This document shows positions 3,062 to 63,354 of a stretch of 64,000 nucleotides of DNA, one piece after another. Location of the stretch: contig LBPS01000002.1 of the NCBI GenBank assembly GCA_000990325.1, positions 9,562-73,561 of the forward strand, read 5' to 3'. Source of the DNA: Candidatus Nomurabacteria bacterium GW2011_GWE2_34_25 (GTDB taxonomy: Bacteria > Patescibacteriota > Minisyncoccia > Phycocordibacterales > UBA9973). Numbering within the stretch: the stretch's first letter is position 1; every line of letters starts with the position of its first letter. A program made the position numbers and the translations under genes. The notes beneath the pieces were generated by a model. That model was not told where the DNA came from, did not search any database, and saw only the letters and a list, made by a program, of their open reading frames with translations.

Positions 3062-3148
3062 GCGGAGGCGGTGAGATTCGAACTCACGGTACCGATTAAA
3101 GTACGACGGTTTAGTAAACCGTTGATTTAAACCACTCATCCACGCCTC
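3062..3148 (-). tRNA. Type-II (long variable arm) tRNA, Ser-like, with unusual anticodon loop TTACTAA (anticodon ACT)
   Basis: Minus-strand fold: GGAGGCG-TG-GAT-GAGTGGTTTAA-ATC-A-ACGGT-TTACTAA-ACCGT-long arm-GTGAG-TTCGAAT-CTCAC-CGCCTCC-G. D-loop is nearly identical to E. coli tRNA-Ser; discriminator G. Confidence 0.6.
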
Positions 3149-3283
3149 CTCACTTCGTTCGTCGGCGTGTCTTCGTGTCCTTCCGGACCCTTCCCTCAAG
3201 CTAGTGCTCACACATAGCTTGTCGGATAAAAGTATCCGAACGGATGAAATATAAAGCAGTTTACATTTCATATCCACGCCTCC
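3149..3283 (-). ncRNA. Candidate structured ncRNA just upstream of the type-II tRNA, bounded by a 12-nt direct repeat of the tRNA 5' end. GC-rich, several hairpins, including GUCC-GGAA-GGAC resembling the SRP RNA domain IV tetraloop
   Basis: ATCCACGCCTCC at 3137-3148 and 3272-3283; local GC well above flanks; hairpins TCGGATA/TATCCGA, AAGCTA/TAGCTT, GTCC-GGAA-GGAC. Confidence 0.3.
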
Positions 3284-26051: not shown

Positions 26052-26099
26052 ATTTTTAAAACATAACATAAAATAGAAAATAATTCCATTTTATTGTGT

Positions 26100-26175
26100 C
26101 GATGGGAGGGCTCGAACCTCCGACCTTGGGCTTATGAGTCCCACGCTCCAGATTCTTCTTCGGGTTCATGGACAT
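26100..26175 (-). pseudogene. Degenerate tRNA-like sequence (CAT anticodon loop CTCATAA, good T-arm GGAGG-TTCGAGC-CCTCC, no foldable D-arm or acceptor)
   Basis: 3' half folds as tRNA; 5' half has only GTCCATG as a 6/7 acceptor match and no D-stem. Confidence 0.4.
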
Positions 26176-26202
26176 GTTTTTGGTATGTCACTTACCGAAT
26201 TG

Positions 26203-26273
26203 TTGCGGGAGGTCGAATCGAACGACCGTCTTAAGGTTATGAGCCTTACGAGATACCATTTCTCTATCCCGCT
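26203..26273 (-). tRNA. tRNA-Met (anticodon CAT), initiator-like (1-72 mismatch, A11:U24)
   Basis: Acceptor AGCGGGA/TCCCGCA with A1·A72 mismatch, D-arm GAG-AAATGGTAT-CTC, anticodon stem TAAGG/CCTTA with loop CTCATAA, T-arm GGTCG-TTCGATT-CGACC. Confidence 0.75.
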
Positions 26274-26347
26274 ATATAATATTAAATTTTACAAACATCT
26301 ATTTTTTCAAAGACTCATAACCGGTTATTCGCGCTATTAGTCCTTTC

Positions 26348-26378
26348 GGAGATACAATTTCTCTATCCCGCTATATAT
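26348..26378 (-). repeat. Partial duplicate of the tRNA-Met 5' end plus 7 nt of 5' flank (30/31 nt identical to 26250-26280), continuing into a decayed tRNA copy
   Basis: gagatacaatttctctatcccgctatata versus gagataccatttctctatcccgctatata. Confidence 0.7.
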
Positions 26379-26556: not shown

Positions 26557-26628
26557 GCCGTCATAGCTTAGTGGTAAAGCACTGTCTTGGTAAGACAGAG
26601 ACCGTGAGTCCGATTCTCACTGACGGCT
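26557..26628 (+). tRNA. tRNA-Thr (anticodon GGT)
   Basis: Acceptor GCCGTCA/TGACGGC, anticodon stem CTGTC/GACAG with loop TTGGTAA, T-arm GTGAG-TCCGATT-CTCAC. Confidence 0.85.
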
Positions 26629-26664
26629 CCGCAATTAAAGCCACATCGTTTTTAGCGAAATTTT

Positions 26665-26688
26665 GGCGGGCGGAGCGAAGCTCCGCCC
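26665..26688. other. Isolated GC-rich hairpin (GGGCGGAGC-gaa-GCTCCGCCC, 9-bp stem) at the island boundary; no T-run
   Basis: Conspicuous GC-only stem in an AT-rich spacer. Confidence 0.5.
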
Positions 26689-26773
26689 AAGGATTTAAAG
26701 GATTTCCATATGCTTTTTGTTTTTGGAGGGTGAGTTTTAAGTTTACTCATTAAAATATGTAAATTATGTTAAT

Positions 26774-27628
26774 ATGTATTTATATATGAAGACAGAAATA
26801 ATAAAATCACATATAAGCAACTTTGAATCAAATTCACACAAGACCAGTGAGGGAGTTGAATTCTGGCTTGCTCGTGATTTACAAGAGCTTTTAGGATATG
26901 ACAAGTGGGATAATTTCATAAAAGTTATATCAAAAGCTAAAATAGCTTGTGAAAATAGCAAACAAGTAGTTTCTGACCATTTTGCCGACGTCGGGAAAAT
27001 GGTTAAACTTGGTTCAGGAAGCGAGCGGGAAATTGCAGATATAATGCTTACTAGATATGCTTCTTATTTGGTAGCTCAAAATGGTGATTCTAAAAAAGAG
27101 GAAATTTCTTTTGCTCAAAATTATTTTGCAGTGCAAACAAGAAAGTTTGAAATTATAGAAAAACGAATACAAGAATTTGAACGAGTTACTGCTAGGCAAA
27201 AATTAACAGAAACTGAAAAAGAATTATCAGGTATTATTTATCAACAAACTGGCAGTGATAAGAATTTTGGATTGATTAGAAGTAAAGGGGATAAAGCCTT
27301 GTTTGGTTTTACAACTGGAGAAATGAAAAAGCGACTTGGTGTTCCGGAAGGTCGAGCACTTGCTGATTTTCAGCCAACAATTATTTTGAAAGCAAAAGAT
27401 TTTGCAACAGAAATCACTATTTTCAATTCAAAGAACAAAAATTTAAAAACAGAACAAGCTATTTCAGAAGAACATATTACAAATAATCGTAGTGTCAGAA
27501 AAACACTCATTGGTCGTGGAATTATTCCAGAGAGACTTCCAAAAGAAGAAGATATCAAAAAGATTGAACGAAAACTAAAATCTGATGAAAAGAAAGGCTT
27601 GAAAAAGGTAGATAAGCTTGGAAAATAA
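26774..27628 (+). CDS. DinD-like protein (DNA-damage-inducible protein D family)
   Basis: Matches E. coli DinD as recalled from memory: EFWLARDLQELLGY..W.NF.KV..KA..AC..S.....DHF.....KMV.LGSG.EREI.D..LTRYA.YLV.QNGD. Confidence 0.75.
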   Translation: MYLYMKTEIIKSHISNFESNSHKTSEGVEFWLARDLQELLGYDKWDNFIKVISKAKIACENSKQVVSDHFADVGKMVKLGSGSEREIADIMLTRYASYLVAQNGDSKKEEISFAQNYFAVQTRKFEIIEKRIQEFERVTARQKLTETEKELSGIIYQQTGSDKNFGLIRSKGDKALFGFTTGEMKKRLGVPEGRALADFQPTIILKAKDFATEITIFNSKNKNLKTEQAISEEHITNNRSVRKTLIGRGIIPERLPKEEDIKKIERKLKSDEKKGLKKVDKLGK

Positions 27629-27631
27629 TGT

Positions 27632-28399
27632 ATGAACCTAACTTTCAAAATAGAAATAGCCGATAAGTATATAAGCTATTCTCAAAAAGCACGCGTATTA
27701 ACTGAAGATTGGGTATTGAGTGAAATATATTGCCCGAGTTGTGGTAATAGTATTTATGATTATGATAACAATAAACCTGTCGCAGATTTTTACTGTAAAA
27801 GATGCTCAGAAGATTTCGAATTAAAATCTAAAAAAGGAAAGATTGGTAAAAAAGTTTCTGCTGGAGCTTATTCTCAGATGATAAAGAGAATTAATTCGTC
27901 CCAAAAACCGAATTTCTTTTTTATGGGGTACATGGTCGAAATGTGGAATGTGAATGATTTTTTTGTTATTCCAAAACACTTTTTTGTATCAGAAATTATT
28001 GAAGAAAGAAAACCGCTTACAGAAAGTGCCAGACGAGCTGGCTGGGTTGGTTCAAATATACTATTTTCAAAAATACCAAAAGCGGGGCAAATTTTTTATG
28101 TTGAAAACGGGAAAGAGCTAGAGAAAAAAGATGTTTTGGAAAAATGGCAGAAAACAGTATTTCTAAAGCAAATTAAAAAAGCTGATGCCAAAGGTTGGAT
28201 TTTGGATATTATGAACTGCATTGATGCTTTAAATAAGAAAGAGTTTATACTACAAGATGTCTATGATTTTGAAAAAGATTTATCTGTTATTCACCCTGAA
28301 AACAAAAATATAAAGCCGAAAATCAGACAGCAATTACAATTTTTGAGAGATAAAGGTTATCTTGAATTTATTGAGGCTGGGAAGTATCGACTTAAGTAG
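27632..28399 (+). CDS. DpnI-like methyl-directed (G-m6A-TC) type II restriction endonuclease
   Basis: Collinear with S. pneumoniae DpnI as recalled: SQKARVLTEDWV...YCPSCGN...PVADFYCKRCSEDFELKSKKG...NFFFMGY...RKPL...ARRAGWVGSNI...IRQQLQFLRDKG. Confidence 0.8.
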   Translation: MNLTFKIEIADKYISYSQKARVLTEDWVLSEIYCPSCGNSIYDYDNNKPVADFYCKRCSEDFELKSKKGKIGKKVSAGAYSQMIKRINSSQKPNFFFMGYMVEMWNVNDFFVIPKHFFVSEIIEERKPLTESARRAGWVGSNILFSKIPKAGQIFYVENGKELEKKDVLEKWQKTVFLKQIKKADAKGWILDIMNCIDALNKKEFILQDVYDFEKDLSVIHPENKNIKPKIRQQLQFLRDKGYLEFIEAGKYRLK

Positions 28400-28435
28400 T
28401 TGACTTTATTTTTTATTTGATCAAGGATATAGTAT

Positions 28436-28627
28436 ATGAATACAAAATTACAATTATTAGAAAAAGAAATAGAAGTGTTGGCGAACAATTACAGGACTGA
28501 TTGGAAGGAGGACTTATGGGAAAGTGAAAAAATTGAGGAATACGGTTTAAACGAATTTATTGGTGGTAAAGCAGATGCTTACGAAGATTGTTTAGATTTA
28601 ATTAAAAAATGTATACAAACTAGCTAA
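28436..28627 (+). CDS. Small acidic hypothetical protein (63 aa)
   Basis: ORF track only. Confidence 0.3.
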   Translation: MNTKLQLLEKEIEVLANNYRTDWKEDLWESEKIEEYGLNEFIGGKADAYEDCLDLIKKCIQTS

Positions 28628-28652
28628 CCAATGGTATTCAGTAAGAGTTTTA

Positions 28653-28728
28653 GCCATCCTAGCTCATCTGGTAGAGCAATTCATTCGTAATGAATAGGTG
28701 CCGAGTTCGAGACTCGGGGATGGCTCCA
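28653..28728 (+). tRNA. tRNA-Thr (anticodon CGT), CCA encoded
   Basis: Acceptor GCCATCC/GGATGGC, anticodon stem ATTCA/TGAAT with loop TTCGTAA, T-arm CCGAG-TTCGAGA-CTCGG. Confidence 0.85.
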
Positions 28729-33720: not shown

Positions 33721-34401
33721 ATGGCTATTCGAGATAAAAATTTAGTTCCAGAAGAATATTATCATTTGTATAATCGTGGAAATGATAAAAAGAAAATTTT
33801 TTTAGACGAAGAAGATTATGATCGTTTTGTAAAGCTATTATACATATGTAACTCCAAAAAAGAATTCAAATTTAAATATTCTGTAATACGAAGTAAAATA
33901 GATGCTTTTGATTTCGAAAGAGGAGAACCCCTAGTTTCTGTTCTTTCTTGGGTTTTAATGCCGAACCATTTTCACATAATTTTAATTTGTCACAGGTCCG
34001 ACCTGTGTACCGAGAAGTATAATCCTATTACAGAATTCATGAGAAAGGTTTCTACTGCATATGTAATGTATTTTAATAAAAAGTATGAAAGAACAGGAGG
34101 ATTGTTTGAGGGTAGGTTTAAATCAAGACACATAGGAGAAGAAAATTATTTTAATTATATTTTTTCTTATGTACACTTAAACCCTATAAAGTTAATTCAG
34201 AAAGATTGGAAAGAGAAAGGGATTTTTGACAAGAATAAAGCTAAAGATTTTCTAGAAAATTATAAATATTCTAGTTTTCAGGATTATTTTGGTAAAAAGA
34301 GGAAAGAAGAGGGAATAATAGATAAAAAGTCTATTCCTGAGTATTGCCTTTGTAATCATGCAAAAGACCTATTTGTGTGGATTAATAAAGGTGCATATTA
34401 G
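33721..34401 (+). CDS. IS200/IS605-family HUH (Y1) transposase, REP-associated tyrosine transposase (RAYT)-like
   Basis: HUH motif MPNHFHIIL and catalytic Tyr region YVHLNP; flanked by REP palindromes. An in-frame REP copy encodes ICHRSDLC right after the HUH motif. Confidence 0.7.
   Translation: MAIRDKNLVPEEYYHLYNRGNDKKKIFLDEEDYDRFVKLLYICNSKKEFKFKYSVIRSKIDAFDFERGEPLVSVLSWVLMPNHFHIILICHRSDLCTEKYNPITEFMRKVSTAYVMYFNKKYERTGGLFEGRFKSRHIGEENYFNYIFSYVHLNPIKLIQKDWKEKGIFDKNKAKDFLENYKYSSFQDYFGKKRKEEGIIDKKSIPEYCLCNHAKDLFVWINKGAY
33991..34007. repeat. REP-like palindrome CACAGGTC-C-GACCTGTG (copy 2, inside the transposase ORF, in frame)
   Basis: Perfect palindrome within coding sequence. Confidence 0.8.
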
Positions 34402-38479: not shown

Positions 38480-40156
38480 ATGAAATCATCCGTATCAAAG
38501 CTAGAGAGTAAATTATCTAACTGTAAGTATATCTTTGTAGTTGGTGGAGTTATCTCTGGCGTTGGGAAGGGAGTCGCTGCCTCTTCTATCGGCCTCCTTA
38601 TGCAGTCCAGAGGTTACAAAGTAACTTCTATAAAAATTGATCCATATATAAATATTGACGCAGGGACCATGAATCCGACAGAGCACGGAGAAGTCTTTGT
38701 GTTGGACGATGGAGATGAATGTGATCAAGATATGGGGAATTACGAGCGATTCTTAGGGGTTGATCTGTGTCGTACAAATTATATGACGACTGGTCGTGTG
38801 TATCAAGAAGTTATTCGCAAAGAGCGTAACCTAGAATACAAAGGCAAAAATGTTGAAGTTGTTCCCGATGTTCCACTTGAAGTTATTCATAGGATTAAAG
38901 AAGCAACGAGGATAACTGGTTCCGATATAACTATAATTGAAGTAGGTGGAACTGTGGGTGAATATCAAAATGTCCTATTCCTTGAAGCTGCACGTATGCT
39001 CAAAACGAAATATCCAGCTGATGTAGCCTTTGTGCTAGTTTCTTATTTGCCAGTACCTTCAAATCTAGGGGAAATGAAAACAAAACCAACTCAATACGCT
39101 TCAAGGACTTTAAACTCCGCTGGAGTTCAAGCGGATATAATAATTGCTCGTGGACCTATAGCTCTTGATAAAAAACGCAAAGAGAAGATTGCCCTATTCT
39201 GTAATGTCTCTGAAGAAAATGTCATATCTGCTCCCGATGTCAAAAGTATTTACGATATTCCAATAAATTTTGAGAAAGATAAAATGGGGGAGACTCTTGA
39301 GAGAGTCCTTAGTTTACCCAAGCGTACAGCCAATCTAACTAAATGGAAAAATTTTGTATCTAAGACGAAGAATGGTAAAGAGAAGATAAAAATAGCCGTA
39401 GTTGGAAAGTATTTTGATTCAGGTGACTTTGTCCTTTCTGATGTGTATATATCTATTCTTGAAGCATTGAAATTCTCTTCATATGAGTCAGGTGTTGGTG
39501 TAGATATTTCTTGTGTAAATTCTAAAGATTTCGAATCCAAAAAGATTCCAGTATCTATGCTAAAGAAATACGATGGAGTAATTGTTCCAGGAGGTTTTGG
39601 TGAGAGTGGAATTGAGGGGATCATCATGGCCATAAATTATGCGAGAACTCACAATATTCCTTACTTTGGACTTTGTTATGGTATGCAACTCATGGTTATA
39701 GAATATGCAAGGAATGTATTGGGCCTGAAAGATGCCAATACTCGTGAGATAAATCCAGGCTCGAAGAATCTTGTGATAGATGTTATGGAGGACCAAAAGG
39801 CTAAAATTGAAAGTAAAAATATGGGAGGTAGTATGCGTTTAGGAGCATATCCTGCCAAATTAACAAAGGGGACAGTGGCACAAAAGGCTTATGGAACATC
39901 AGAGATATCAGAGCGTCATAGACATCGCTATGAAGTCAATAATGCTTACAGGGAGGCTCTGGAGAGTGCAGGACTGGTCTTTTCAGGTCTTTCACCTGAC
40001 GGCAAGCTTTGTGAAATAGCTGAATTACCAGAAAGTAAGCACCCATTCTTCCTAGGTACCCAATTTCATCCAGAATTCAAGGCTAGACCATTAAATCCTC
40101 ATCCATTGTTTACGGCGTTTATAAAAGCATGCAAGAAATTAGGTTCTAGTAAATAG
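38480..40156 (+). CDS. pyrG: CTP synthase
   Basis: N-terminal synthetase GGVISGVGKG and C-terminal class I glutamine amidotransferase (GLCYGMQ, HRHRYE). Confidence 0.95.
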   Translation: MKSSVSKLESKLSNCKYIFVVGGVISGVGKGVAASSIGLLMQSRGYKVTSIKIDPYINIDAGTMNPTEHGEVFVLDDGDECDQDMGNYERFLGVDLCRTNYMTTGRVYQEVIRKERNLEYKGKNVEVVPDVPLEVIHRIKEATRITGSDITIIEVGGTVGEYQNVLFLEAARMLKTKYPADVAFVLVSYLPVPSNLGEMKTKPTQYASRTLNSAGVQADIIIARGPIALDKKRKEKIALFCNVSEENVISAPDVKSIYDIPINFEKDKMGETLERVLSLPKRTANLTKWKNFVSKTKNGKEKIKIAVVGKYFDSGDFVLSDVYISILEALKFSSYESGVGVDISCVNSKDFESKKIPVSMLKKYDGVIVPGGFGESGIEGIIMAINYARTHNIPYFGLCYGMQLMVIEYARNVLGLKDANTREINPGSKNLVIDVMEDQKAKIESKNMGGSMRLGAYPAKLTKGTVAQKAYGTSEISERHRHRYEVNNAYREALESAGLVFSGLSPDGKLCEIAELPESKHPFFLGTQFHPEFKARPLNPHPLFTAFIKACKKLGSSK

Positions 40157-40246: not shown

Positions 40247-40972
40247 CTAGTTAAGTTCATCCTCCCCAGTTCTTATTTTACTATATTTTATTATTTCTAA
40301 TATCTGATCTACATCATCTGTAACTATGAACCTTTCTAGATCAGGGGCAGAGATTGTTTTGTATTTCTCTACAAATTGTTCTTCCAATATCTTTTTAATT
40401 GGATTCCAAAATTCTGTTCCGTACAAGATTATAGGAATCGGTCCTACCTTGCCAGTTTGTAAGTGAGTAAGCATTTCAAAGAATTCATACATTGTACCAG
40501 TTCCTCCAGCACAGTAGATACAAGCTTCAGTTGTGTATTGCATAGAGACTTGTCTTGCAAAGAAGAAATGAAATGGAACTTCTTTTGTCACATAAGGGTT
40601 TGTACTTTGTTCACGAGGAAGTCGAATAGTAAGACCTACTGACTCTACTCCTGCATCAAATGCTCCTTTATTAGCAGCTTCCATAAGGCCACCTCCACCA
40701 CCAGTTATAACTATATATCCTAATTCTTTAGCTATTCTATTTGCTAAATTATATGTTTTTATGTATTCAGGGTGATCGGGCTTTAATCTTGCTGAACCGT
40801 AAAAGGTAACAGAAGGTCCAATATCCTTAACAGTATCTATTCCATCACGGAATTCTTCCTGTATCATACAGAGCTTTGTTTCTTCTCCGTCTCCTCCTGT
40901 AAGAGTTATACAACCATTTTTAATATCATCTGTCGTTATGTGCCTAGGCTCATATTTTATTTCTGTAGTCAT
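40247..40972 (-). CDS. LOG-family protein paralog (TIGR00730-type)
   Basis: ITGGGGGLMEAANKGA and CAGGTGTMYEFFEMLT motifs. Confidence 0.75.
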   Translation of the reverse strand: MTTEIKYEPRHITTDDIKNGCITLTGGDGEETKLCMIQEEFRDGIDTVKDIGPSVTFYGSARLKPDHPEYIKTYNLANRIAKELGYIVITGGGGGLMEAANKGAFDAGVESVGLTIRLPREQSTNPYVTKEVPFHFFFARQVSMQYTTEACIYCAGGTGTMYEFFEMLTHLQTGKVGPIPIILYGTEFWNPIKKILEEQFVEKYKTISAPDLERFIVTDDVDQILEIIKYSKIRTGEDELN

Positions 40973-41088
40973 GAGTTACATTCTACCTTATTATCCTATG
41001 ACTTTCAATTGAATTTTTAGCATTTTGTGGTAATATGTTAAATAATTGCCGAATGGTTATGAGTTTGGAATAATTAAAGTTTTAATCT

Positions 41089-41159
41089 TGCCGAATGGTG
41101 TAATGGTAGCACGTCTCCCTCTGGAGGAGAAAATTGGGGTTCGAATCCCTGTTCGGCAG
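41089..41159 (+). tRNA. tRNA-Gln (anticodon CTG)
   Basis: U1-A72 acceptor TGCCGAA/TTCGGCA, anticodon stem TCTCC/GGAGA with loop CTCTGGA, T-arm TGGGG-TTCGAAT-CCCTG. First 12 nt duplicated at 41046-41057. Confidence 0.75.
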
Positions 41160-41293
41160 CAAAAATTGTTTAGGCAATTTTTGATGCCGAAAGCAAATGA
41201 ACTGCTTCATTTGCGTCAGGGATGAGAAAGGCTTTTCGTTATCGAAGATTGAAAAGCACCCGCGACGGTAGTCGAGAAAAGTGTACTCACGCT

Positions 41294-41310
41294 CCCTGTT
41301 CGGCAGCCAA
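41294..41310 (+). repeat. Direct repeat of the tRNA-Gln 3' end (CCCTGTTCGGCAGC) carrying an encoded CCA, 133 nt downstream of the tRNA
   Basis: 14-nt identity with 41147-41160; downstream copy reads ...GGCAGCCA while the gene copy reads ...GGCAGCAA. Confidence 0.7.
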
Positions 41311-41376
41311 GTCGTGAATAGCTCGGGATATGTTGAAGCCTATTAATTTATATTGTTTAGATATATAATATAAATC

Positions 41377-63295: not shown

Positions 63296-63354
63296 CCATA
63301 GGTCGGACCTAGGGACACAATTTTTTAAAGAAAGACCCTAGGTCCGACCTATGG
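63296..63354. repeat. Inverted pair of REP-like palindromes (CCATAGGTCGGACCTAGGG ... CCCTAGGTCCGACCTATGG, 19-nt arms, 21-nt spacer); core AGGTC-N-GACCT shared with the RAYT-flanking REPs
   Basis: The two arms are exact reverse complements; each is also internally palindromic. Confidence 0.75.

Follow-up and report, generated by a model that had tools for sequence, protein, structure and literature searches.

Structured non-coding cassettes carrying antisense and sense copies of the host tRNA tail at tRNA 3' ends in Patescibacteria

Integrative elements that target tRNA genes insert at the tRNA 3' end, leave the tRNA intact and repeat the displaced 3' end at the far junction; they can form arrays, and empty sites are found. 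The integron attC and the CTX-phi attP are attachment sites made of folded single-stranded DNA, in which structure is conserved over sequence and the enzyme acts in trans. The casposon located beside the tRNA-Pro gene of Aciduliprofundum boonei is associated with a target duplication of fixed length (~15 bp) at the tRNA 3' end, which overlaps the tRNA by 5 bp only, and its integration requires the T-psi-C-loop region upstream of the duplicated segment (PMC5137440). In Patescibacteria, group I introns reside in the anticodon loop of tRNA genes (e.g., 35/36), interrupt the gene and are larger than the element described here (PMC13011429).

Here we analyse an insert behind a tRNA-Gln gene in the window, i.e., the whole stretch of 64 kb of a Nomurabacteria/Paceibacterota (CPR) chromosome under study, along with related inserts at other tRNA genes. 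Such a cassette follows an intact tRNA on the same strand and comprises an optional hairpin or terminator, an antisense arm to the acceptor 3' strand, a conserved hairpin with an invariant CUGC loop, an antisense arm to the T-stem 3' strand, a conserved three-way-junction body and a sense copy of positions ~60-74, the two arms together being antisense to the last ~15 nt of the host tRNA.

All the features of tRNA-targeting integrative elements listed above recur in the cassette, including the bounding direct repeats of the tRNA 3' end (15 nt) and an empty site (in the relative L138), but the cassette is only 133-147 nt long, carries no genes, has a conserved folded interior and combines antisense with sense copies of the target, its arms being fitted to many tRNA identities. 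It may resemble attC and attP in having small cassettes arrayed on one platform and a putative recombination site that is an imperfect palindrome: arrays occur, and the tRNA tail, hairpin and antisense arms fold into a branched palindrome. The fold also rebuilds a duplex resembling the target, the arms corresponding to the bottom strand of the tRNA gene 3' end, with A-T where the tRNA has G.U. Unlike integrons, however, the cassette has no R'/R'' GTTRRRY core, its cargo is a structured non-coding body rather than an ORF, and the platform consists of many tRNA genes. The likeness to casposons lies in a ~15-bp target duplication next to the T-psi-C region and in tandem, directional insertion resembling the growth of CRISPR repeat-spacer arrays. 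Yet the cassette duplication is situated wholly within the tRNA (U60-C74), and casposons are large elements with terminal inverted repeats, Cas1 and PolB, none of which the cassette possesses; neither Cas1 nor PolB was detected in the 40 scanned ORFs of the window. To our knowledge, casposons are unreported in Patescibacteria. The cassette also differs from MITEs in that its ends form no terminal inverted repeats: when reverse-complemented, the conserved right end (..GTCGAGAR) yields none of the left ends (AAAAATTG.., ACTGTAAG.., AAGTTCGG..), and the inverted repeat of the cassette is internal and made of target sequence.

Like the REP/REPIN-RAYT and IS200/IS605 palindromes, the cassettes are short, non-coding, hairpin-rich intergenic repeats for which single-strand action and a single-copy enzyme in trans can be envisaged; REPs, in contrast, show no association with tRNA ends and carry no copies of the sequence beside them. 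A RAYT (Y1 HUH) system is present in the window, where a RAYT-like gene (33721-34401) is flanked by its own REPs with CACAGGTCNGACCTGTG hairpins. We considered its product as the cassette enzyme and rejected it, the CACAGGTCNGACCTGTG REPs being unrelated to the cassette hairpins. tRNA-like RNAs (the tmRNA domain, YrlA Y RNAs, viral 3' structures and mascRNA) similarly stack an acceptor-like helix on a T-stem-like helix, and the window copy additionally ends in 3' G-CCA. The cassette nevertheless lacks a T loop, a D arm, an anticodon arm and any Rfam match, its helix is copied from the neighbouring tRNA, and identity elements of the G3.U70 type are lost. Finally, the group I introns of Patescibacteria come from the same phylum as the cassette, are likewise associated with tRNA genes, form a structured RNA and pair with the flanking tRNA in a guide-like manner. 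They are found by group I models, whereas the cassette has a complete tRNA ahead of it and is matched by none of the intron models.

Exact-match searches across the entire window recovered the 12-nt copy of the tRNA-Gln 5' end that the first-pass annotation had placed upstream of the gene (TTGCCGAATGGT, 41046-41057 and 41088-41099, no third site) as well as the 14-nt copy of its 3' end downstream (CCCTGTTCGGCAGC, 41147-41160 and 41294-41307, found only twice), although the full 3' repeat proved one base longer, 15 nt (TCCCTGTTCGGCAGC, 41146-41160/41293-41307). The CA reported to follow the second 3' copy and to complete an encoded CCA is there (the sequence reads GCCA), as is the A-run after the gene copy (AAAAA), and the two hairpins noticed in the interior turned out to be covarying helices of a conserved family. 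The duplications mentioned at a type-II tRNA and at tRNA-Met are exact 5'-end duplications, namely GGAGGCGTGGAT at tRNA-Ser (3138-3149 and 3272-3283, minus strand) and 21 nt at tRNA-Met (26258-26278 and 26357-26377). A third copy of the tRNA-Gln 5' acceptor strand, TGCCGAA at 41185-41191, was absent from that annotation. Altogether, the window contains 12 exact direct repeats of at least 12 nt within 300 nt, compared to 2.95 expected (maximum of 7 in 100 shuffles), and 4 of the 12 flank tRNAs. The tRNA-Gln(CTG) gene itself was called both by ARAGORN and by the Rfam tRNA model (61.8 bits). Two assemblies made independently from one species, one from an ENA and one from a JGI sample, agree at every base of the locus, which is therefore not an assembly artefact; the comparison comprised these two assemblies out of a set that also included 19 further contigs with this LOG protein, given as similar places. 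Samples containing the species include ERZ28564079 and JGI 3300025000. The coordinates of all features are compiled in Table 1.

Table 1. Features of the tRNA-Gln locus (window positions)
Feature	Position	Strand	Description
Extended -10 promoter element (putative)	41028-41036	+	TGgTAATAT; tRNA-Gln transcription unit
Putative 5' relic TTGCCGAATGGT	41046-41057	+	Copy of position -1 and first 11 nt of tRNA-Gln; 9 nt past the -10 box
Spacer	41058-41087	+	30 nt, from relic to functional tRNA; with the repeat, a 42-nt period
tRNA-Gln(CTG)	41089-41160 (ARAGORN 41089-41159/60)	+	Complete, without encoded CCA: G73, C74, then AAAAA
Repeat copy 1	41146-41160	+	tRNA U60-C74: T-stem 3' strand, acceptor 3' strand, G73, C74
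A/U-rich hairpin	41161-41182	+	AAAAAUUG uuuag GCAAUUUUU; folds as terminator-like but weak
Arm P1-5'	41185-41191	+	TGCCGAA, Watson-Crick complement of acceptor 3' strand TTCGGCA
Hairpin 1	41193-41214	+	9-bp stem, invariant AACUGCUU (CUGC loop)
Arm P3-5'	41217-41223	+	CAGGGAU
Conserved body	41224-41278	+	J3/4 GAGAAAG; P4 GCUUUUC...GAAAAGC 41231-41257; J4/5 ACCCG; P5 CGAC GGUA GUCG 41263-41274; J5/3 AGAA
Optional segment AAGUGUACUCACGC	41279-41292	+	In a subset: window, L081, L091, L094, L117, L122, L125
Repeat copy 2	41293-41309	+	U60-C74 then CA, giving G73-CCA; equals the original tRNA 3' end as in the empty site
Native tRNA-Gln trailer	41310-41325	+	AGTCGTGAATAG..., common to empty sites L138 and L089 (AAAGTCGTGACAAG)
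Predicted empty-site form			T-loop...TCCCTGTTCGGCAGCCAAGTCG, no insert

A metagenome scan detected the same architecture in 46 contigs. The covariance model (R1) yielded 51 hits with 46 distinct sequences; the 51 extracted sequences combine the 46 metagenome contigs with five earlier loci, and in 40 of them a tRNA, of many identities, is located upstream on the same strand. Copies lie 17-63 nt past tRNAs of at least ten isoacceptor types. In 15 type-A members, 14-19 nt of the tail of the host tRNA are copied exactly, and the Thr variant of L089 has an exact copy of 18 nt. The core duplication, U60-C74, spans 15 nt in L099, L113, L129 and the window, with lengths of 14-19 nt in other members, where the additional bases correspond to the GAGAR end of the element itself. 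Some members occur as tandem arrays or as several copies per contig: L135 carries two cassettes, and in L098 three units are arrayed that agree in their Val arms while each has a body of its own.

In Rfam searches, only tRNA hits reached the threshold and nothing consistent emerged over the element at relaxed E-values (E ≤ 10 for the window, E ≤ 1 for nine other members), group I and group II intron models included, as were tmRNA, YrlA, ribozyme, riboswitch and omega-RNA/HEARO families. ARAGORN found no tmRNA, and a literature search retrieved no paper describing the tRNA-tail cassette. The family is best read as previously uncatalogued, ~110-150 nt non-coding structured cassettes at tRNA 3' ends in Patescibacteria. 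No viral contig showed the strict pattern, and a looser 18-mer produced a single hit, a chance match in a coding region of a high-GC phage without a tRNA, so a viral origin was rejected. Several 'solo' elements have decayed tRNA remnants upstream, making them weak evidence for a circular intermediate, and they were not used as such. The three window inserts (at Gln, Ser and Met) were also aligned and share no real homology; the 8-mer AACTGCTT common to them occurs at chance level window-wide, and the covariance model gave a weak hairpin-1-like match at the Ser locus (E=0.13).

The arms, the conserved body and the sense copy imply that a single strand, RNA or ssDNA, folds into a coaxial helix resembling the acceptor/T-stem stack, with the body replacing the T loop. 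In other members, P1-5' complements the tRNA 3' strand together with N73 and C74 and has A-U where tRNA-Ala has G3.U70; wherever copy 2 is intact, P1 pairs without a flaw in the majority of members. In hairpin 1, compensatory changes occur at all 9 pairs and 98.8% of cells are paired. The CAGGG of P3-5' plus the following A complement U60 and the T-stem 3' strand of copy 2 (41293-41298), and the terminal U (41223) pairs with the A of GAGAA (~41278), the element's T-loop position-59 slot; this Y:R pair covaries with T-loop base 59 (C:G 30, U:A 6). The CAGGG strand pairs entirely by Watson-Crick rules, whereas the T-stem 5' strand of tRNA-Gln itself is UGGGG. P4 and P5 covary as well (alignments A3 and A4), and the optional segment was treated as an insertion relative to the covariance model. 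Over the helices, 96.2% of cells are paired, compared to 77.7% in shuffled and ~48% in slid controls, double changes affect 18 of the 25 pairs, and none of 500 shuffles reached any observed measure, in an alignment that had been fitted to the model. Compensatory substitutions beyond the controls, the generic mark of structured RNA, thus back the helices. The same fold is the independent MFE structure in 12 of 13 members, and the window copy has a folding z of -3.6. The P3 tally stands at 224 Watson-Crick pairs, 18 G.U pairs and 31 mismatches or A.C pairs. The excess of G.U over A.C pairs (33 vs 16) is only suggestive as an indicator of RNA as opposed to DNA, since the body variants are shifted in register at two columns.

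The A/U-rich hairpin that separates tRNA and arms in the window combines with 41152-41160 and 41183-41191 into an imperfect palindrome of 17 bp, of which the tRNA acceptor 3' strand forms a part. A terminator scan identified no GC-rich terminator at 41161-41182; the corresponding position holds a G+C-rich hairpin followed by a U-tract in the L098 units and, by eye, in other members. Three further interpretations of these parts were discarded. The alternative T-arm GUAGG...CCUGU does not covary with the tRNA-specific T-stem, whereas P3 does. Derivation of the arms from a tRNA primer or PBS-like sequence was rejected because the complementarity runs not into CCA but into the genomic trailer of copy 1 (CCGCAGCAAA/TTTGCTGCGG in L129; the 17-bp palindrome in the window). 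A hammerhead or other ribozyme is contradicted by the junction GGAYGAGAAAG, which has no CUGAUGA core, and no Rfam ribozyme model matched.

An empty site, which the first-pass annotation had proposed to look for, was found in L138, a relative with 91% PyrG identity: the same tRNA-Gln, differing in one T-loop base, reads ...CCCTGTTCGGCAGCCAAGTCGTGATAGG at its 3' end and continues directly with CCAAGTCGTGA, which in the window comes after the second copy. L084, L085, L087 and L089 likewise have no insert, and L089 contains a cassette after tRNA-Thr(GGU), where the window has none. By comparison with the L138 site, 41161-41307 is a 147-nt indel with a 15-nt junction duplication and not a decayed island; L138 alone sets no polarity, and either gain or loss would fit. 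The alternative of a small inserted element, raised in passing by the annotation, accordingly holds. A scan of GTDB representative genomes with the LOG protein gave at best 47% identity, which makes these genomes of no use for synteny.

We lean, with moderate confidence, to the view that 41161-41307 is one copy of a family of structured tRNA-3'-end cassettes that is gained and lost by recombination, a role as RNA being proposed in addition. On this reading the cassette is dynamic and probably mobile, although both its mobilisation mechanism and its RNA function are inferred. Gain and loss would proceed through recombination at the tRNA 3' end, with the insertion site specified by the arms or by the repeat; the tRNA would stay intact upon insertion, only the encoded CCA being lost in the window. 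As the cassette encodes nothing, the enzyme would have to be supplied in trans. The cassette might also be co-transcribed with the tRNA and function as RNA, which the terminator-like hairpins could limit; the invariant single-stranded junction bases and the G.U excess point to an RNA function, beyond the needs of a purely selfish DNA. No movement was seen between the two same-species assemblies compared. Other points that speak against a mobile cassette are the lack of cassette terminal inverted repeats, the exact match of the arms to each host tRNA and the truncation or degeneration of copy 2 in roughly a quarter of the members.

An alternative that we regard as possible, though not probable, is a cis-acting functional RNA that does not move. 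In one version, a sense-antisense-sense switch, the arms would pair either with the tRNA 3' end, at the expense of its acceptor and T stems, or with the copy further downstream, which closes the body; whether mature tRNA is released would depend on a ligand or protein that binds the body. In the other, the tRNA-like helix would recruit RNase P, RNase Z and the CCA enzyme and release a stable RNA of ~125 nt (41185-41309). The junction nucleotides are invariant and the helices covary, the cassette is always downstream of the tRNA and on its strand, and in the compact members L090, L102 and L106 only 17-21 nt separate the tRNA end from the hairpin-1 loop motif, which leaves no room for a terminator. 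For the window transcript, pairing of copy 1 with the arms gives a fold of -83.9 kcal/mol, which is 7 kcal/mol below the value for tRNA plus element (-76.9), and the closing helix consists of a flawless acceptor stem of 7 bp with G73-CCA. Even where copy 2 has decayed, as in Ala-type members, the arms match the tail of the functional tRNA by perfect complementarity. On the other hand, presence and absence among close relatives argue against an essential regulator, and three-unit arrays with different bodies are hard to see as regulators. Given that the G3.U70 of tRNA-Ala is replaced by A-U and that P1 often spans N73 and C74, the helix is no general aminoacylatable or RNase P-type mimic. Copy 2, moreover, is degenerate or shortened in about a quarter of the members, and exact identity over 15-19 nt at many tRNAs goes beyond selection alone.

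A more specific proposal, which we offer tentatively and think rather unlikely, is that the cassettes constitute an insertion system addressed by base pairing. In it, the two separate antisense arms would be either a guide or an attachment site of folded single strand that mimics the duplex of the tRNA 3' end, and an enzyme in trans would insert the cassette after the tRNA that matches the arms, giving rise to integron- or CRISPR-like arrays of structured non-coding cargo. By analogy, the logic would be comparable to that of integron attC, the bridge RNAs of IS110 and intron EBS/IBS pairing, and the system would be a distinct, unrecognised class that possibly modulates maturation of the host tRNA.

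The first-pass annotation favoured attL/attR-type scars of a tRNA-targeting integrative element that has mostly decayed, which would mean a large element such as a prophage or island that has lost its interior. Integrase-mediated insertion classically leaves direct repeats of a tRNA 3' end, L138 provides the empty site, and other mobile DNA lies near tRNAs of the window, with Bro-N and DpnI genes between its two tRNA-Thr genes. Nevertheless, this explanation is very improbable and close to refuted. The 133-nt non-coding interior is not a random remnant but contains a conserved, covarying module of ~110 nt that recurs beside many tRNAs, and antisense arms are unexpected in att scars. The integrase remnants that the annotation suggested searching for are missing too: neither an integrase nor a fragment of one was found within ~10 kb of the cassette, a Pfam scan of 31 ORFs (28.7-51.8 kb) identified no recombinase, no tyrosine recombinase was seen within the window, and the annotated neighbours are cellular genes, with no integrase, recombinase or reverse transcriptase among them. 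No integrase or other gene family recurs beside the remaining members, whose neighbours are housekeeping genes.

We hold it to be highly unlikely that the insert is an intron in the T loop, with tRNA positions 1-59 followed by an intron at 41146-41292 and a 3' exon with CCA at 41293-41309. The arms, as internal guide sequences, do pair with the would-be 3' exon; CCA is present on copy 2 but not on copy 1 in several Gln members and one Tyr member; L125 has, within the T loop of a decayed upstream tRNA-Gln copy, a related body without an upstream duplicate; and tRNA introns are abundant in Patescibacteria (PMC13011429). The upstream tRNA, however, is complete and scores normally when unspliced, every other tRNA of the window likewise has no encoded CCA, the CCA on copy 2 is not general and copy 2 is often degenerate, no group I or group II intron model matches, and ~110 nt is too small for either. 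Chance repeats, common enough at short lengths in a window of 34% G+C, as the frequency of AACTGCTT illustrates, are refuted by the three exact repeats of at least 14 nt within 300 nt where 0.28 are expected, by repeat ends that coincide exactly with the tRNA termini and by recurrence of the architecture in the 46 metagenome contigs.

If mobile, the cassettes would represent a new kind of very small, protein-free element that locates tRNA genes by the sense and antisense sequence it carries, a compact natural case of addressable DNA insertion and a tracer of recombination in uncultured Patescibacteria. If they act chiefly as RNA, the family would be a three-way-junction RNA, both widespread and conserved, that uses a tRNA acceptor/T-stem scaffold and is physically joined to tRNA transcripts, in organisms whose regulatory repertoires are minimal. 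Either way, they would account for much of the tRNA-fragment debris in these genomes (tail and head duplications, nested tRNA-Gln genes) and warn annotators that partial tRNA repeats there are not prophage scars; the covariance model makes a genome-wide survey feasible at once.

Finally, the 5' copy is a separate relic of an older tRNA-Gln 5' end and not the second end of the insert, contrary to the proposal that the 5' and 3' copies are paired scars of one element. A block (T/A)TGGTA(A/C)(T/G)AT is conserved upstream of tRNA-Gln in L084, L085, L087, L088, L089, L091, L125, L136 and L138, and consensus and conservation alone suggest that it acts as a promoter. Relative to this putative promoter, the 5' copy occupies the expected position of the original tRNA 5' end, where L136 and L088 have longer relics of 24 nt including the D-arm and L125 has a degenerate copy of the whole tRNA-Gln, in agreement with a split older gene. 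On the favoured reading, an insertion or duplication of 42 nt separated these 12 nt, the promoter-proximal 5' end of a former tRNA-Gln, from the present gene. The annotation had reasoned that duplications shared by relatives at conserved spacing would suggest a functional leader or trailer; this holds in part and for the 5' copy only, as a 9-nt copy in L089 co-varies and keeps the -42 spacing, whereas L138, L084, L085 and L087 have none. By eye, the spacer and the L089 leader have TATGAG and AATTAAA in common, at different offsets.

The window (34% G+C) carries housekeeping genes including RecG, MscL, enolase, LigA, GatA, a release factor, FtsE and FtsX, and its PyrG protein is nearest (80-91% identity) to proteins labelled Candidatus Nomurabacteria or Paceibacterota, which identifies the chromosome as one of the Patescibacteria (CPR). 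The duplication of both termini of tRNA-Gln described in the first-pass annotation is real. Exact-match searches across the whole window placed TTGCCGAATGGT at 41046-57 and 41088-99 only and CCCTGTTCGGCAGC at 41147-60 and 41294-307 only, the locus is identical in two independent assemblies of the species (ENA and JGI), and exact repeats of at least 14 nt lying at most 300 nt apart number 3 against 0.28 expected (12 against 2.95 for at least 12 nt, 4 of the 12 flanking tRNAs). The 3' repeat measures 15 nt once the preceding T is counted; the gene copy is followed by AAAAA and the distal copy by CA, giving G73-CCA. The 5' acceptor strand (TGCCGAA) also occurs a third time, at 41185-91, which had been overlooked. 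None of the eight tRNA genes in the window encodes CCA, the sole encoded CCA being that of the displaced tail (41307-09); CA(A) follows the discriminator in five of the six tRNA 3' ends read directly (of the eight), and CCG follows that of tRNA-Thr(GGU).

The gene order RF-FtsE-FtsX-PyrG-LOG(-)-promoter-tRNA-Gln is kept among relatives. In one of these, L138 (GCA_013377105.1; PyrG 91%), a tRNA-Gln that matches that of the window except for one T-loop base runs straight into CCAAGTCGTGATAGG without an insert, and the same flank follows the distal tail copy in the window (CCAAGTCGTGAATAG). L138 therefore represents the empty site, and 41161-41307 is an indel of 147 nt that duplicates 15 nt at its junction. 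The tRNA-Gln is also bare in four other relatives (L084, L085, L087 and L089), and L081 and L088 contain homologous inserts. The stems of hairpin 1 differ between the window, L081 and L088 yet stay complementary (GCAAATGAA, ATATGTGAA, GGAAGCAAA) around an unchanged loop; all three retain the blocks GGAYGAGAAAGNCUUUUC and GAAAAG, and the window and L088 share ACCCGCGACGGUAGUCGAG.

Searches with the pattern AACTGCTTN{10,14}GGAYGAGAAANNCTTTTC matched 46 metagenome contigs and none of the viral contigs searched; with five previously fetched loci that also match, the extracted set comprised 51 members. An intact same-strand tRNA (Gln-CUG, Val-GAC/UAC, Lys-UUU/CUU, Ala-UGC, Ile-GAU/UAU, Leu-GAG, Tyr-GUA or Ser-GGA) lies upstream in 40 of the 51, 17-63 nt from the loop motif of hairpin 1, apart from four exceptions with partial tRNAs or units in between. 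An exact 14-19-nt copy of the host tRNA tail closes the element in 15 members of type A, the window included; the copy is 21 nt long in the unit of L103, which has the variant body of type B, and 18 nt in a tRNA-Thr variant in L089. The core common to the tail copies is U60-C74, longer matches arising because the conserved GAGAR end of the element resembles the T loop. A covariance model built on 13 members gave 51 matches among the fetched loci, including two on one contig (L135, after tRNA-Leu and after tRNA-Val), the tRNA-Thr copy of L089, the array of L098 and a single one in the window. The L089 copy follows tRNA-Thr(GGU); the identical tRNA-Thr tail in the window is bare. Contig L098 holds an array of three units, each ordered as hairpin/terminator, arm, hairpin 1, arm, body and Val tail; the arm module of units 1 and 3 is identical over 35 nt (GCGATA, hairpin 1, GT, GAGGGAC), and unit 2 keeps these arms but has a variant form of hairpin 1. 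Three different bodies on shared arms thus identify arms and body as separable modules. No protein family adjoins more than five of the 46 loci, the neighbours being housekeeping genes (ABC-F, Ddl, UvrC, L19, RluA, TsaD); for the TsaD beside the L102 copy, the closest relatives that bear a name come from Candidatus/Patescibacteria bins. Further bodies on the same arm architecture were seen on four contigs (see table). The type-B body reads GGGGTCGC..AATTTTC..GAAAAT.AT.TGTGACC, with arms reaching through the T loop; the related body in L125 lies within the T loop of a decayed copy of tRNA-Gln that lacks a duplicate upstream, and that in L109 weakly matches Clostridiales-1 RNA (E=0.18).

The segment 41161-41312 folds into an A/U hairpin and a structure of ~125 nt (-49.2 kcal/mol, z = -3.6; 0 of 200 shuffles as stable). 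Individual minimum-free-energy folds recovered helices P1, P3, P4, P5 and hairpin 1 in 12 of 13 members. Across 46 distinct sequences, in an alignment fitted to the model, standard pairs fill 96.2% of cells (77.7% when shuffled, ~48% with slid partners), compensatory double changes occur at 18 of the 25 pairs, and the covariation measures were attained in 0 of 500 shuffles. In P3, the 5' strand is Watson-Crick complementary to R59/U60-N65 of the terminal copy, and the Y:R pair there covaries with T-loop base 59; in P1, the 5' strand complements the acceptor 3' strand, in many cases as far as N73 and C74, with A-U in place of the G3.U70 of tRNA-Ala. In the window, the T-stem partner CAGGG is fully Watson-Crick while the tRNA's own strand is UGGGG, which marks it as complementing the 3' strand rather than repeating the 5' strand. 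The arms thus represent the bottom strand of the tRNA gene 3' end, split by hairpin 1. Where the two tail copies differ, P3 tracks the distal copy and outer P1 the gene copy and trailer in L122, and P1 tracks the gene copy in L081 and L091; about one member in four has a truncated or degenerate distal copy.

G.U pairs outnumber A.C pairs (33 to 16), an excess that, given a register shift in two columns, does no more than lean towards an RNA of the tRNA strand. For the full window transcript, the fold that pairs the arms with the tail of the tRNA itself (-83.9 kcal/mol) has a lower free energy than the tRNA and the element folded side by side (-76.9), so the arms can compete with tRNA folding, at least thermodynamically. 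We are inclined to regard the insert as a member of a new family of structured tRNA-tail cassettes that are dynamic and probably mobile. The main rival, a cis-acting RNA coupled to tRNA maturation, appears rather unlikely and would be compatible with mobility of the cassette.

Among known systems, the repeat and the empty site are the signature of tRNA-targeting integrative elements, but no integrase was found in the cassette or the neighbouring genes. The suggestion of scars of a decayed integrative element is not supported, the insert being a family member, whereas the alternative of a small inserted element is borne out by the empty site and the conserved structured family. Unlike MITEs and casposons, the cassette has no terminal inverted repeats, although a casposon at tRNA-Pro provides a parallel in its ~15-bp duplication adjoining the T-psi-C region (PMC5137440). 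In Patescibacteria tRNAs, group I introns lie in the anticodon loop and are recognised with intron models (PMC13011429); the cassette neither interrupts that loop nor matches such models. No Rfam family matches it, and our literature search found no paper describing it. Integron attC and CTX-phi, which are folded-strand attachment sites, may be its closest functional analogies.

The 5' copy (41046-57) starts 9 nt past a conserved -10 box, about equivalent to the tRNA of L095, which starts 11 nt past its own. At the locus in L136 (PyrG 91%), the relic of this tRNA type, TTGCCGAATGGTGTAGTGGCGGCA, extends to 24 nt; next come a hairpin, a distinct and complete tRNA-Gln, and what is left of the old anticodon region and the cassette 3' end; L125 has a degenerate whole tRNA-Gln copy upstream of the functional gene, and L138 has no 5' relic at this locus. 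Given its position and the longer relics of relatives, we take 41046-57 for the head of a former tRNA-Gln that an insertion or duplication of 42 nt pushed aside, independently of the 3' cassette. A neutral relic does not account for L089, where a 9-nt head copy, also at -42, agrees with the different tRNA of that genome; a functional leader or a mechanism that acts repeatedly may thus be involved. The orthologous tRNA-Gln(CUG) differs sharply among L081, L084, L085, L087, L088, L089, L136 and L138 (PyrG 84-91% identity), with acceptor stems TGCCGAA, TGGGAGA, TACGGGA, TGCGGGA, TGCGAGA and TGCCAGT. L088 carries the same ~190-nt cassette as L136, inserted in a TGCCAGT-type gene; in both, the cassette contains a complete second tRNA-Gln and sits between the D-arm and anticodon stem of the older gene, which looks like tRNA gene replacement by insertion. 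TGGGAGA-type genes have leader and trailer complementary over ~10-12 nt beyond the acceptor stem, covarying between L081 and L087 (GAGC/GCTC and GGGC/GCCC); the precursor would carry an extended acceptor helix.

Features of the window and of contigs of relatives or family members
Feature	Contig	Coordinates	Strand	Basis or remark
PyrG	window	38480-40156
LOG-family gene	window	40247-40972	minus
tRNA-Gln(CTG)	window	41089-41159/60		ARAGORN, Rfam
Outer helix, TGCCGAA:TTCGGCA	window	41185-91 : 41299-305		fold
Hairpin 1, 9 bp with CUGC loop	window	41193-214		fold
CAGGGA:UCCCUG, two more hairpins inside	window	41217-22 : 41293-98		fold
Further body	L103	78-330
Further body	L098	2797-2975
Further body	L125	6650-6815
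Further body	L109	412-536	minus
TGGGAGA-type tRNA-Gln	L081	8700-8815
TGGGAGA-type tRNA-Gln	L087	6500-6600
RAYT-like gene	window	33721-34401	plus	NCBIfam NF047646, E=2e-12, below family cut-off; Pfam Y1_Tnp weak
Flanking REP-like hairpins, CACAGGTCNGACCTGTG	window	33672-88; 34406-22
Third REP-like hairpin, in frame in ORF	window	33991-34007
REP-like doublet near 63.3 kb	window	63297-63353		related
Orphan elongator tRNA-Met 3' fragment	window	~26095-26150	minus	D-stem 3' strand to acceptor end
Intact elongator tRNA-Met, equivalent place	L125	63-137	minus
Type-II tRNA-Ser(ACU)	window	3062-3283	minus	unusual anticodon; span takes in the upstream repeat
Initiator-like tRNA-Met	window	26202-26377	minus	A1.A72 mismatch; span takes in the upstream duplication
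Bro-N-domain and DpnI-family restriction-enzyme genes	window	26557-28728

Elsewhere in the window, 5 matches to the hairpins of the RAYT-like (REP-associated tyrosine transposase) gene were counted where 0.04 would be expected; the cassette hairpins are unrelated to them. The orphan tRNA-Met fragment was missed by ARAGORN and Rfam, and no matching 5' acceptor strand occurs anywhere in the window. The tRNA-Ser(ACU), whose first 12 nt recur 134 nt upstream, adjoins a normal tRNA-Ser(GCU); the 122-nt spacer opens with a hairpin bearing a AACUGCUU loop as in hairpin 1 of the cassette (covariance model, E=0.13). A 21-nt duplication (5 leader and 16 tRNA nucleotides) lies 99 nt upstream of the initiator-like tRNA-Met; because this upstream copy runs on into a degenerate D-arm, it resembles part of a gene copy that has decayed. 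Finally, the Bro-N and DpnI genes separate tRNA-Thr(GGU) from tRNA-Thr(CGU), which are 50-135 nt apart in L081, L087 and L089, identifying this ~2-kb segment as an inserted island.
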